This document shows, piece by piece, positions 1,124 through 12,908 of a DNA stretch of 64,000 bases. Source of the stretch: Escherichia phage Ec_YwIITB1; the sequence record PQ356294.1; one strand, written 5' to 3'. Under the pieces are notes generated by a model. The model worked only from the letters and a program-made list of their open reading frames with translations. It ran no database searches and was not told where the DNA came from. A program made the position numbers and the translations under genes. How positions within the stretch are numbered: position 1 is the stretch's first letter; each line of letters starts with the position of its first letter.

Positions 1124-4261
<3,138 letters not shown>

Positions 4262-4292: not shown

Positions 4293-6272
4293 ATGACTTT
4301 ATTATCTCCGGGCATTGAGCTCAAAGAAACTACGGTTCAAAGCACCGTGGTTAATAACTCTACTGGTACAGCAGCTTTGGCCGGTAAATTCCAGTGGGGT
4401 CCTGCTTTTCAAATTAAACAGGTTACGAATGAAGTAGATTTAGTTAATACTTTTGGTCAACCTACAGCTGAAACTGCTGACTATTTTATGTCTGCAATGA
4501 ATTTCTTACAATATGGAAATGATTTGCGAGTCGTGCGTGCTGTCGATAGAGATACCGCTAAAAACTCATCTCCGATTGCCGGTAATATTGAATACACTAT
4601 TTCTACCCCAGGTAGTAACTACGCGGTTGGAGATAAAATCACGGTTAAGTATGTTTCAGAAGATGTTGAAACAGAATGTAAAGTTACCGAAGTAGATGCT
4701 GATGGAAAAATTAAGAAAATTAATATTCCTACTGCAAAAATTATCGCTAAAGCAAAAGAAGTAGGCGAATATCCAGAATTAGGTTCTAATTGGACCGCGG
4801 AAATTTCTTCGTCTTCCTCTGGTTTAGCTGCAGTAATAACTCTTGGAAAAATTATTACTGATTCTGGTATTTTATTAGCTGAAATTGAAAATGCCGAAGC
4901 TGCTATGACAGCGGTTGAATTTCAGGCAAGTCTCGAAAAATATGGAATTCCAGGAGTAGTAGCTCTTTATCCAGGTGAATTAGGCGATAAAATTGAAATT
5001 GAAATCGTATCTAAAGCTGACTACGCAAAAGGAGCTTCTGCATTACTCCCAATTTATCCGGGCGGTGGTACTCGTGCATCTACTGCTAAAGCAGTGTTTG
5101 GATATGGGCCGCAAACTGACTCACAGTACGCTATTATAGTTCGTCGTAATGATGCTATTGTTCAAAGCGTTGTTCTTTCAACTAAGCGTGGCGAAAAAGA
5201 TATTTACGATAGTAACATCTATATTGATGACTTTTTCGCAAAAGGCGGCTCAGAATATATTTTTGCAACTGCACAAAACTGGCCAGAAGGATTCTCTGGA
5301 ATTTTAACTCTGTCTGGTGGATTATCATCAAATGCTGAAGTGACAGCAGGAGATTTGATGGAAGCTTGGGACTTCTTTGCTGACCGTGAATCTGTTGACG
5401 TTCAGCTGTTTATTGCGGGTTCTTGCGCCGGCGAATCTTTAGAAACAGCATCTACTGTCCAAAAACACGTCGTTTCAATTGGTGATGCTCGCCAGGATTG
5501 CTTAGTATTGTGCTCACCACCACGTGAAACTGTAGTTGGAATTCCTGTAACTCGTGCAGTAGATAATTTAGTTAACTGGAGAACTGCAGCAGGTTCATAC
5601 ACTGATAATAACTTTAATATCAGTTCAACCTATGCAGCAATCGATGGCAACTACAAATATCAGTATGACAAATATAATGATGTAAATCGTTGGGTTCCAT
5701 TAGCTGCTGACATTGCTGGTTTATGCGCAAGAACTGATAACGTTTCTCATACTTGGATGTCTCCGGCTGGTTATAATCGTGGTCAAATTCTTAACGTTAT
5801 TAAACTTGCTATTGAAACTCGCCAGGCGCAGCGCGATCGTTTATATCAAGAAGCTATCAACCCGGTAACTGGTACAGGTGGCGATGGTTACGTATTGTAC
5901 GGTGATAAAACAGCTACTTCTGTTCCTTCTCCGTTTGATCGTATTAACGTTCGTCGTCTGTTTAATATGTTGAAAACGAATATCGGACGTAGTTCAAAAT
6001 ATCGTTTATTCGAATTAAACAACGCGTTTACTCGTTCATCGTTCCGCACAGAAACTGCCCAATACTTACAGGGAATTAAAGCTCTCGGTGGAATTTATGA
6101 ATATCGTGTAGTTTGCGATACAACAAATAATACTCCGTCAGTAATTGATAGAAATGAGTTTGTTGCAACATTCTACATTCAACCGGCTAGAAGCATTAAC
6201 TACATTACCTTAAACTTCGTAGCAACTGCTACTGGTGCAGATTTCGATGAGTTAACTGGTCTTGCAGGTTAA
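4293..6272 (+). CDS. 18: tail sheath protein gp18
   Basis: 659-aa ORF; T4 homolog. Confidence 0.95.
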   Translation: MTLLSPGIELKETTVQSTVVNNSTGTAALAGKFQWGPAFQIKQVTNEVDLVNTFGQPTAETADYFMSAMNFLQYGNDLRVVRAVDRDTAKNSSPIAGNIEYTISTPGSNYAVGDKITVKYVSEDVETECKVTEVDADGKIKKINIPTAKIIAKAKEVGEYPELGSNWTAEISSSSSGLAAVITLGKIITDSGILLAEIENAEAAMTAVEFQASLEKYGIPGVVALYPGELGDKIEIEIVSKADYAKGASALLPIYPGGGTRASTAKAVFGYGPQTDSQYAIIVRRNDAIVQSVVLSTKRGEKDIYDSNIYIDDFFAKGGSEYIFATAQNWPEGFSGILTLSGGLSSNAEVTAGDLMEAWDFFADRESVDVQLFIAGSCAGESLETASTVQKHVVSIGDARQDCLVLCSPPRETVVGIPVTRAVDNLVNWRTAAGSYTDNNFNISSTYAAIDGNYKYQYDKYNDVNRWVPLAADIAGLCARTDNVSHTWMSPAGYNRGQILNVIKLAIETRQAQRDRLYQEAINPVTGTGGDGYVLYGDKTATSVPSPFDRINVRRLFNMLKTNIGRSSKYRLFELNNAFTRSSFRTETAQYLQGIKALGGIYEYRVVCDTTNNTPSVIDRNEFVATFYIQPARSINYITLNFVATATGADFDELTGLAG

Positions 6273-6280
6273 TTGATTAT

Positions 6281-6294
6281 GGGGCTTCGGCCCC
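6281..6294 (+). other. GC hairpin with UUCG tetraloop directly after gene 18 stop
   Basis: GGGGCTTCGGCCCC. Confidence 0.4.
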
Positions 6295-6311
6295 TATTCT
6301 CGAGGAAACAA

Positions 6312-6929
6312 GTGATTATTTCTAAGTTTGTTAAAGTGAAAATTGTACCATCAAATTTTAAACATTATCAATCAAAGGGTTATAAATTAACACCTCTTGG
6401 AGCGGTTAAACATGGATTTAGGTATTATGAAATTGATGTTAAAGTTGAAGACATTAAAGGTAATACCGCGTATGTAAAATGCCGTTGCGATAAATGTGGA
6501 ATTGAATATAACCAACGCATTGGAAGAAACACTGATATTTGTCGTGATTGCCGTCATAAAGATAAAATGCGCAATAATTCATATGGTTCCGCGAATAAAG
6601 GAAAAACAGTAGAATGTATGCATGGCGTAAATCATCCAAGATGGAACCCAAATAAATCTGAAATGCGTGAATATATTTCATTGGTATATAAAGAAACTCG
6701 TAAGCATAAGAAAATTTGGTCAAAATGGCCAAATGCTGATAAAATAGGAGTGTGCGGTACAAAAGGTGCTTACCAACTTGATCATAAGGTATCTATCAAA
6801 TACGGTTTTGATAATTTAATTCCTGTTGAAATAATTGGCGGTATTAATAATTTAGAAATAATCACTTGGGAATCTAACCGAGAAAAATCAAAAAGAAATA
6901 GTGTAGATCTTTGGGATTTACTAGAATGA
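6312..6929 (+). CDS. HNH-family homing endonuclease (free-standing)
   Basis: ORF open from 6273 (TTG); likelier start GTG 6312 with GAGG 7 nt upstream; Cys cluster CRCDKCG...CRDCRH and H-N-H-like motif DHKVS...NLEIITWESNREKSKRN. Confidence 0.7.
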   Translation: MIISKFVKVKIVPSNFKHYQSKGYKLTPLGAVKHGFRYYEIDVKVEDIKGNTAYVKCRCDKCGIEYNQRIGRNTDICRDCRHKDKMRNNSYGSANKGKTVECMHGVNHPRWNPNKSEMREYISLVYKETRKHKKIWSKWPNADKIGVCGTKGAYQLDHKVSIKYGFDNLIPVEIIGGINNLEIITWESNREKSKRNSVDLWDLLE

Positions 6930-6936
6930 TTCTAAA

Positions 6937-6954
6937 GGCCTGTTTCGGCAGGCC
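6937..6954 (+). terminator. hairpin after HNH gene
   Basis: GGCCTG-TTTCGG-CAGGCC. Confidence 0.35.
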
Positions 6955-6955
6955 A

Positions 6956-6963
6956 TATAAATA
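6956..6963 (+). promoter_or_regulatory. T4-type late promoter motif
   Basis: TATAAATA. Confidence 0.45.
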
Positions 6964-7014
6964 CACTATATCCTTAATTCTTTAATTCTATATGCCCTAG
7001 GTTAAACATAGGGA

Positions 7015-7022
7015 TATAAATA
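7015..7022 (+). promoter_or_regulatory. late promoter for gene 19
   Basis: TATAAATA 15 nt before ATG 7037. Confidence 0.6.
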
Positions 7023-7036
7023 CTACAGAGGCTAAT

Positions 7037-7528
7037 ATGTTTGTAGATGATGTAACACGAGCGTTTGAATCTGGTGATTTTGCTCGACCTAACTTATTCC
7101 AAGTAGAAATTTCTTATCTTGGACAAAATTTTACGTTTCAATGTAAAGCCACTGCTTTACCAGCTGGTATTGTAGAAAAAATTCCAGTCGGTTTTATGAA
7201 CCGTAAAATTAACGTAGCAGGCGATCGTACATTCGATGACTGGACTGTTACAGTAATGAACGATGAGGCACATGATGCTCGCCAGAAGTTTGTTGATTGG
7301 CAAAGCATTGCTGCTGGGCAAGGGAACGAAATTACTGGTGGAAAACCAGCAGAGTATAAAAAGAGTGCTGTTGTTCGCCAATATGCTCGTGACGCTAAAA
7401 CTGTAACAAAAGAAGTTGAAATTAAAGGCCTGTGGCCTACTAACGTGGGTGAACTTCAATTAGATTGGGATTCAAACAATGAAATCCAAACCTTTGAAGT
7501 AACTCTCGCTCTCGATTATTGGGAATAA
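7037..7528 (+). CDS. 19: tail tube protein gp19
   Basis: 163-aa ORF; T4 homolog; late promoter upstream. Confidence 0.95.
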   Translation: MFVDDVTRAFESGDFARPNLFQVEISYLGQNFTFQCKATALPAGIVEKIPVGFMNRKINVAGDRTFDDWTVTVMNDEAHDARQKFVDWQSIAAGQGNEITGGKPAEYKKSAVVRQYARDAKTVTKEVEIKGLWPTNVGELQLDWDSNNEIQTFEVTLALDYWE

Positions 7529-7560: not shown

Positions 7561-9185
<1,625 letters not shown>

Positions 9186-9186
<1 letters not shown>

Positions 9187-11346: not shown

Positions 11347-12908
11347 ATGACTATCAAAACTAAAGCTGAACTTTTGAACAAATGGAAGCCATTACTGGAA
11401 GGTGAAGGTTTACCGGAAATTGCTAATAGCAAACAAGCGATTATCGCTAAAATCTTTGAAAACCAGGAAAAAGATTTCCAGACAGCTCCAGAGTACAAAG
11501 ACGAAAAAATCGCCCAGGCGTTCGGTTCTTTCTTAACAGAAGCTGAAATCGGTGGTGACCACGGTTACAACGCTACTAACATTGCTGCTGGTCAGACTTC
11601 TGGCGCAGTAACTCAGATTGGCCCAGCTGTTATGGGTATGGTACGTCGTGCTATTCCTAACCTGATTGCTTTCGATATTTGCGGTGTTCAGCCGATGAAT
11701 AGCCCGACTGGCCAGGTATTTGCACTGCGTGCAGTATATGGTAAAGACCCAATCGCTGCTGATGCTAAAGAAGCATTCCACCCAATGTATGGTCCAGATG
11801 CAATGTTCTCTGGTCAGGGTGCTGCTAAGAAATTCGCGCTAGCACACAAACTACTGTAAGTTGGAACCATTTACACCTATTTCTTCCAGGAAACTGGTAC
11901 TGTATATCTGCAAGCTACCTCTAGTTAAAGCAAATTGATACAAGTGCTTCTGACGCAGCTAAATTAGATGCTGAAATTAAGAAACAAATGGAAGCTGGCG
12001 TATTGGTAGAAATCGCTGAAGGTATGGCTACTTCTATCGCTGAACTTCAGGAAGGTTTCAACGGTTCTACCGATAACCCATGGAATGAAATGGGATTCCG
12101 TATCGATAAACAAGTTATCGAAGCTAAATCTCGTCAGCTGAAAGCTGCTTACTCTATCGAATTAGCACAAGACCTCCGCGCTGTTCACGGTATGGATGCT
12201 GATGCTGAACTGTCTGGTATTCTGGCTACCGAAATCATGCTGGAAATCAACCGTGAAGTTGTTGATTGGATTAACTACTCAGCTCAGGTTGGTAAATCTG
12301 GTATGACCCTGACTCCGGGTTCTAAAGCTGGTGTATTTGACTTCCAGGATCCGATTGATATTCGCGGTGCTCGCTGGGCAGGTGAATCCTTTAAAGCTCT
12401 GTTGTTCCAGATTGACAAAGAAGCAGTTGAAATTGCTCGTCAGACCGGTCGTGGTGAAGGTAACTTCATTATCGCTTCCCGTAACGTAGTTAACGTTCTG
12501 GCTTCAGTTGATACTGGCATTTCTTATGCTGCACAGGGTCTGGCTACCGGCTTTAACACTGATACTACCAAGTCAGTATTTGCTGGTGTTCTGGGTGGTA
12601 AATACCGTGTATACATCGACCAGTATGCTAAACAGGATTATTTCACTGTAGGTTATAAAGGTCCGAACGAAATGGATGCTGGTATTTACTACGCTCCATA
12701 TGTAGCTCTGACTCCGCTGCGTGGTTCCGATCCGAAGAACTTCCAACCGGTAATGGGATTCAAAACTCGTTACGGTATCGGTATCAACCCATTTGCAGAA
12801 TCCGCTGCTCAGGCTCCGGCTTCTCGCATCCAAAGCGGTATGCCTTCTATTCTTAATAGCCTTGGTAAAAACGCTTACTTCCGCCGTGTATATGTTAAAG
12901 GTATCTAA
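11347..12908 (+). CDS. 23: major capsid protein gp23; reading frame interrupted between ~11836 and ~11930
   Basis: 170-aa ORF 11347-11859 matches gp23 N-terminus, 306-aa ORF 11988-12908 matches C-terminus; in-frame stops at 11857 and 11926 with three frame changes between. Confidence 0.85.

Follow-up and report, generated by a model that had tools for sequence, protein, structure and literature searches.

The genes for the tail sheath (gene 18) and the tail tube (gene 19) of phage T4 are separated by a 116-bp spacer that contains no open reading frame (ORF), and the question raised by the corresponding locus of Escherichia phage Ec_YwIITB1 is what to make of the ORF that lies between these two genes. 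The window analyzed is a stretch of 64,000 nucleotides from this phage (PQ356294.1), to which all coordinates refer. It is a T4-like (Tequatrovirus) segment in which genes 17 (2429-4261), 18 (4293-6272), 19 (7037-7528) and 20 (7600-9186) follow each other in the T4 order; the closest database phage is 97.6% identical over the first 25 kb, and none is identical. The gene in question is the RB3-type allele of T6 ORF19.1, which has been on record since 1994 and is mostly annotated as hypothetical. The evidence described below makes it probable that the insert is a free-standing homing endonuclease gene of the family that was first recorded as T6 'ORF19.1'.

Alignment of the junction with T4, which the initial annotation of this locus had proposed as the way to set the insertion boundaries, yields clean edges at 6273 and 6928 (Table 1). 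The insert starts at the base right after the TAA stop codon of gene 18, with flanks identical to those in T4 (alignment with T4 and RB3), and its 656 bp stand in place of 8 bp, TACGGTGC, of the T4 18-19 spacer. The T4 junction reads ...GGTTAA-TACGGTGC-ATTCTAAAGGCC..., and the empty site, read directly from the records, is TACGGTGC. From 6929 on, the window is 100% identical to the T4 18-19 spacer, including a hairpin and both late-promoter motifs. Accordingly, the earlier description of a gene bracketed by hairpins and late motifs holds on the 5' side, where the UUCG hairpin belongs to the insert, and fails on the 3' side, where the hairpin and both TATAAATA motifs belong to the T4 spacer. 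The insert-borne hairpin (6281-6294) is identical in the T6-type allele, and the other clades examined all have a strong hairpin after the gene 18 stop codon as well. The insert-borne and the native hairpins both have UUCG loops. With the insert in place, a stable hairpin still comes right behind gene 18, so the end of the gene 18 message is little changed. The 81-nt leader as a whole does not fold in an unusual way (z -0.5), the UUCG hairpin alone standing out, and a search for group I introns and other known RNAs gave no Rfam match in 5900-7300.

The ORF extends from TTG 6273 to TGA 6929 (218 codons). The family alignment and the PHROG match both start at codon 14, GTG 6312, which is most likely the start codon and gives a gene of 205 codons; a GTG start is likewise favored in the T6 entry deposited in GenBank in 1994 ('likely begin by GTG'). 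That the ORF is genuine and did not arise by chance follows from the 37 homologues found by word index and the 6117 cluster representatives recovered at E<=1e-3 in a profile search.

A 180-bp probe across the boundary between gene 18 and the insert matched 495 Tequatrovirus records, 117 of which (24%; record counts are not corrected for shared ancestry) carry the insert at the 18/19 site, 47 of them with the RB3-type allele of the window and 70 with the T6-type allele. An ancestral gene, present at this junction in T4 and all relatives, had been considered at the outset; T4 lacks the ORF, and the occupied records are a minority. With tblastn, a homologue was detected in 239 phage records, with identities from 99% down to 33%. 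The annotated cases inspected were T6, Klebsiella Roth21, Acinetobacter Mokit, Gaprivervirus RZ, Serratia X20, Dhakavirus Bp7, Aeromonas AS-zj and Sinorhizobium phiM12, and in all of them the gene directly follows the tail sheath gene. The clades with a homologue after gene 18 include Tequatrovirus, Klebsiella, Acinetobacter, Gaprivervirus, Winklervirus, Dhakavirus, Aeromonas and Sinorhizobium phages; phiM12 is exceptional in that the next gene after the homologue is not gene 19. In a scan of IMG/VR, near-full-span loci are nearly all located between gp18 and gp19 homologues, even where the gp19 homologue is 26-39% identical, the exceptions being two loci with weak full-span matches (L091 and L098, 28%) and no gp18 nearby, and matches that cover the C-terminal domain alone are found in unrelated contexts. 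On one environmental T4-like contig (L035, 3001-3579) the 18/19 gap holds the family member in inverted orientation relative to the tail genes.

The 18-19 gap has a bimodal length distribution (61-213 bp at empty and 657-902 bp at occupied sites), and single clades can contain both kinds of site. The identity of the protein (33-65% in clades with gp18 ~70-72% identical) does not track that of gp18, and two alleles that are 50% identical occupy the same site between gp18 and gp19 that are ~98-100% identical. Such divergence, which does not follow the host genes, points to horizontal spread or replacement.

The two alleles are mosaics of each other. The RB3_165 protein is 98% identical to the 205-aa protein, and T6 ORF19.1 shares 50% identity with it overall, the leader being identical and the C-terminal 70 residues nearly so. 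At the nucleotide level, the first 60 bp of the insert in the window and that of T6 are identical (the hairpin, the ribosome-binding site and eight codons) and the last 215 bp, with the codons of the catalytic motif, are ~95% identical, with an unalignable middle of 380 bp that encodes the N-terminal domain. The nuclease module is thus common to the alleles, and the presumed recognition module differs between them. Two further copies deviate from the full-length gene: the protein M1HDJ8 of Salmonella phage S16, with 106 aa, matches the C-terminal domain alone (67% identical), and in the Acinetobacter phage vB_AbaM_3014 the match is split in two pieces over two annotated ORFs. Both copies are consistent with gene decay.

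These patterns also bear on the alternative that the gene is an old component of the T4-like tail module, possibly a former homing gene, which encodes a resident accessory nuclease kept for some phage function (competitor exclusion, anti-defence and DNA processing are candidates) and often lost. The position after gene 18, shared by enterobacterial, Sinorhizobium and environmental T4-like phages, would fit such a gene, as would the late promoters of its own that it has in several clades, like the surrounding tail genes, and the retention of the catalytic residues over deep divergence; moreover, domestication of such genes is documented (PMC10448857). However, close relatives differ in the presence or absence of the gene with exact boundaries, two domain-swapped alleles reside in one site, one copy is inverted, identity does not track that of the flanking genes, and the S16 copy is reduced to the C-terminal domain. 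All this looks like gain, replacement and decay and not like stable inheritance, so that a resident accessory nuclease appears unlikely. The initial view of a free-standing HNH endonuclease gene that is mobile at the 18/19 junction is favored by the clean boundary, the 117 occupied sites among the 495 records, the two alleles in one site, the empty and occupied sites side by side and the inverted copy.

The Cys4 cluster and the H-N-H-like motif recognized initially both stand up, with C59, C62, C77 and C80 (nt 6486-6551), which form the zinc ribbon, and D157, H158, N180 and N189 all invariant or nearly so across the family. The family-invariant residues are C59, C62, C77, G105, W111, Y121, D157, H158, N180, L181, W186, N189 and K192, with C80 nearly so. 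The 35 family members all retain D157, H158, N180 and N189, which are also the sole invariant positions in 45 distant relatives with differing N-termini. The AlphaFold model (predicted local distance difference test score, pLDDT, 85) consists of a strand-rich N-terminal zinc-ribbon domain, a low-confidence linker (85-105) and a C-terminal domain. The only strands of the latter are 154-158, which ends in D157-H158, and 181-185, which comes after N180; they are followed by a helix (186-192) that carries N189 and K192. As modeled, this is a beta-beta-alpha-metal arrangement. The best structural neighbors, with weak matches, are Cas9-type and small phage HNH nucleases (Gme HNH, 4h9d; GVE2 HNH, 5h0o), and among the viral models of BFVD the matches include DUF7487 proteins as well as some that bear the name HNH endonuclease or homing endonuclease. 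In some relatives, the C-terminal domain is fused to NUMOD3, helix-turn-helix (HTH) or DUF7487 modules; NUMOD and HTH modules are typical of homing enzymes (PMC3239194, PMC10448857). It appears very likely that the 205-aa protein contains an HNH-type nuclease domain, an assignment that draws on the motif, the predicted fold and weak structural matches, and the N-terminal zinc-ribbon domain is the presumed DNA-binding and specificity module.

DUF7487 is a Pfam domain of unknown function, of which no mention was found in the literature. It is located just upstream of the nuclease-like domain in several larger relatives (P0119, P0125, P0143, P0169 and P0171). Given that DUF7487 proteins in BFVD superpose on the nuclease-like domain (E 1.6e-6), they may be nucleases of a similar kind.

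At the level of sequence profiles, the picture is different. The initial annotation had named a profile search against HNH families as a check and the lack of a match as speaking against its proposal, and formally this lack is what was found: no HNH profile matches the protein in Pfam, NCBIfam or PADLOC (none at E<=1). Pfam gives sub-threshold zinc-ribbon matches only and NCBIfam and PADLOC give nothing, single relatives produce only sub-threshold matches (HNH_4, E 0.0056; HNH_5, 0.22; HNH, 0.003), and the whole-protein profile recovers only zinc-ribbon and mS66 proteins among PDB sequences. A profile of the C-terminal domain matches mainly leucine-rich repeats in the PDB through 'P.eIG.i.NLq.L.w..N', which was dismissed as a repeat-driven artefact, the motif occurring once here; a weak match of this profile to 7enh_A has E 0.25. 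The hhalign probability against a Cas9 HNH segment is 19%, and the cluster names of the distant relatives are uninformative.

These results would suit a zinc-ribbon protein that binds nucleic acid and has no nuclease activity, for instance a late regulator of the tail genes, in which the DH...N...N motif would be structural: no HNH profile matches, the sequence-level matches are to zinc-ribbon families only, and the second CxxC pair of many HNH proteins is absent. Yet the four motif residues are the only positions invariant across the 45 distant relatives, whose N-terminal modules differ, the top structural neighbors are nucleases, and three quarters of the Tequatroviruses manage without the gene, all of which renders such a binder highly improbable. 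Two other assignments find no support. A terminase-associated HNH protein (HK97 type) involved in packaging is contradicted by the lack of the gene in T4 and ~76% of Tequatrovirus records and by the observation that a gene of the ORF19.1 family never adjoins the small terminase gene; T4-type phages use headful packaging, in which the nuclease is gp17 itself. For a type II restriction endonuclease, as annotated in the Roth phage records, a partner methyltransferase gene or a match to a restriction-enzyme family would be expected; the neighbors are the sheath and tube genes, and PADLOC and Pfam gave no match of this kind.

The window also holds a candidate for the target or immunity site of the enzyme. 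In a 36-bp block near the 3' end of gene 18 that encodes ARSINYITLNFV, RB3 differs from T4 at 11 positions over 12 consecutive codons, all synonymous, and the T6 type has 14 changes including one that replaces Thr with Gln. This is the densest substitution cluster of gene 18 (any other 36-bp window has <=8), and the encoded peptide, ARSINYI(T/Q)LNFV, is near-invariant in all T4-like loci fetched. As estimated from identity bands, a variant block is present in ~114 of the 117 insert-bearing records vs ~132 of the 378 empty ones. Among the records read directly, the RB3-type gene is accompanied by the RB3-type block in RB3, ADUt and GRNsp7 and the T6-type gene by the T6-type block in T6, fHoEco02, DCP2 and PP01, and empty sites have any of the three block haplotypes, with an RB3-type block in T2 and a T6-like one in RB14; ten evenly sampled T6-type records are 96.7-100% identical to T6 in the block and the insert. 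Such linkage is the footprint expected if the enzyme recognizes or cuts this stretch and the variant blocks are either co-converted or protective. The site targeted by the enzyme may be within gene 18 instead of at the junction. The association could also reflect simple linkage by descent.

If the insert is a homing endonuclease gene, a mechanism can be envisaged. No TATAAATA late promoter was found within the insert, where sigma-70-like matches are at chance level only, so the gene must be transcribed from the late promoter of gene 18 at 4257 by read-through of the stable UUCG hairpin; several copies in other clades have a TATAAATA of their own ahead of the gene. With no promoter of its own, this read-through and a GTG start, the gene would be expressed late and at a low level. 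The protein would be modular, with the N-terminal Cys4 domain (1-95) reading DNA, a flexible linker (85-105) and a C-terminal HNH-type nuclease of a variant H-N-N kind, in which H158 would serve as the general base, with D157 and N189 as metal ligands and N180 as a support of the fold. When insert-free phage genomes are present in a mixed infection, the enzyme would cut or nick them near the 3' end of gene 18, and repair off the insert-bearing genome would copy the gene, together with the adjacent gene 18 block, into the recipient.

Several points weigh against this reading. In the window itself, the RB3-type gene stands beside a T4-type block, as in the Shigella phages sb1, sb3 and, in part, sb2; the window is probably a recombinant, and the combination does not fit a simple model in which a variant block confers immunity. 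Sandegren and co-workers are said to have reported in 2005 that some T-even free-standing enzymes cut their own genome. Long residence at one locus would also be seen with a vertically inherited accessory gene that was lost repeatedly. The protein matches no HNH profile, its PHROG match (PHROG 5104) is of 'unknown function', a literature search returned no paper on T6 ORF19.1 or the RB3-type gene, and cleavage and homing are steps that we infer. Finally, shared ancestry enters the record counts, and the three RB3-type copies differ in only 4-7 codons, too few for a test of purifying selection.

A more specific version of the homing proposal can be put forward tentatively, as a conjecture that we consider rather doubtful: the ORF19.1 family would be an ancient, site-faithful lineage in which the zinc ribbon reads the DNA that encodes ARSINYI(T/Q)LNFV, and within Tequatrovirus the RB3 and T6 alleles, with their swapped recognition domains, would each come with a matching and largely synonymous 'immunity' variant of the 36-bp block. 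Reading the DNA of a near-invariant sheath peptide would explain why members of the family are found behind gene 18 across the T4 superfamily. If so, the RB3-type and T6-type alleles would be rivals for one locus, phages that have a variant block but no insert would have survived through resistance, and the two alleles would constitute a natural matched set of enzyme and target variants for the evolution of homing specificity.

Table 1. Coordinates and supporting evidence for features of the gene 18-19 region in the window.
Feature	Position	Strand	Evidence and remarks
Inserted cassette, 656 bp	6273..6928	+	Alignment with T4, RB3 and T6
Coding sequence of the 205-aa protein (ORF19.1 family, RB3-type allele)	6312..6929	+	Family alignment; RB3_165 and T6 ORF19.1 annotations
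Shine-Dalgarno sequence GAGG	6302..6305	+	Sequence; 6 nt ahead of the GTG start
N-terminal domain, ~residues 1-95, beta strands and Cys4 zinc ribbon	6312..6596	+	Structure model; weak DUF4379/treble-clef and mS66 matches; mosaic alignment
HNH-like beta-beta-alpha core, residues 154-192	6771..6887	+	Motif conservation, structure model, structural matches
Insert-borne C(UUCG)G hairpin, GGGGC-TTCG-GCCCC	6281..6294	+	Right after the gene 18 stop; sequence, folds, alignment
Gene 18 block of 36 bp encoding ARSINYITLNFV	6186..6221	+	50-85 bp upstream of the insertion point; haplotype comparison, record counts
T4-native hairpin after gene 18, GGCCTGT-TTCG-GCAGGCC, UUCG loop	6937..6954	+	Outside the insert; 100% in T4; fold
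Two late-promoter motifs TATAAATA (6956-6963 and 7015-7022)	6956..7022	+	T4-native, serve gene 19, outside the insert
Gene 18, tail sheath, 659 aa	4293..6272	+	Upstream host gene; 97-99% identical to T4, T6 and RB3 gp18
Gene 19, tail tube, 163 aa	7037..7528	+	Downstream host gene; ORF list

The neighboring gene 19/20 junction, which in the window is empty (a 71-bp gap), is enlarged by ~700-800 bp in Bp7 (L011, 3769-4350) and in the loci L029, L041, L050, L054 and L087, and is probably another insertion hot spot; in Bp7, this gap contains an extra 193-aa ORF, and the portal gene is annotated as split. Two observations concern the records themselves. GenBank MG010123.1, a 32-kb record named 'Staphylococcus phage SAJK-IND', matches the window at 97-98% identity over 25 kb, insert included, and is almost certainly mislabelled or contaminated. 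Within the window, gene 23 (major capsid protein, 11347-12908) is a broken ORF: a 170-aa ORF stops at TAA 11857-11859, and the reading continues from 11988 in a different frame with an ORF of 306 aa. Compared with phage EPIMAM01, there are a 6-bp deletion, TAA in place of GAA and a 2-bp insertion within a variable segment of ~110 bp, and the top database identity of the region is 92.6% vs ~97% elsewhere. The disruption looks like an assembly chimera or error, or else a defective genome.

Free-standing homing genes are well known in T4-like phages, so that one more is no surprise. What is added here is a defined cassette, site fidelity across the family, exchange of modules between alleles and a testable prediction of the target, namely the 36 bp at the 3' end of gene 18. 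PHROG 5104, labeled 'hypothetical', is encoded by roughly one in four Tequatrovirus genomes, among which are many therapy candidates, and can now be given a reasoned function and a cassette boundary. Because such elements drive local gene conversion, this one can distort phylogenies built on genes 18 and 19 and affect co-infections in phage cocktails. Should the proposed target be correct, the two alleles with their matched flanking haplotypes would suit the study of how nuclease specificity and target immunity co-evolve.

Among the characterized and annotated relatives, T6 ORF19.1 and RB3_165 belong to the same family and occupy the same site; most records refer to a hypothetical protein, and a few pipeline annotations of the family read 'homing endonuclease' or 'type II restriction endonuclease'. 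The D-H...N...N-R-x-K pattern of the 205-aa protein resembles the active site of the Cas9-type HNH domain, in line with the weak match to 7enh_A. Like the insert, the genes of the T4 Mob family (MobA-E) are free-standing, lie between conserved genes, are patchily distributed in T-even phages and combine a nuclease with DNA binding in a modular protein (PMC2988022). In contrast, the Mob proteins have an N-terminal HNH domain with the motif HH..P..GG..N..H..H and C-terminal binding modules, whereas the 205-aa protein has the reversed order and the motif DH..N..N. Membership in the Mob family was rejected: the family profile matches neither MobB nor MobC nor any ORF in T4 1-50 kb (E<=10), and the hhalign probability against T4 MobB is 0.3%.

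Hef (phage U5) is, like the ORF19.1 family, a free-standing endonuclease of T4-related phages that belongs to neither Mob nor Seg, and phage LIMEstone1 has a Hef-like gene beside the tail tube gene (PMC3296691). Hef is assigned to the Vsr-like EDxHD family (PMC3239194); compared by family description, the 205-aa protein does not belong there, with no EDxHD motif, no Vsr-type profile match and only two strands in the C-terminal domain. The mechanism proposed here is akin to the 'intronless homing' of SegF, SegG and MobE, which cut in a neighboring conserved gene tens of base pairs away and whose flanking polymorphisms are co-inherited (PMC2988022, PMC2790892); for these enzymes, cleavage sites and marker exclusion have been measured, whereas the ORF19.1 family is known from its sequence footprint alone. 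By analogy, the insert would work like the T-even free-standing homing endonucleases (Seg, Mob and Hef; PMC2988022) and, judging from sequence comparison, appears to belong to none of those families.
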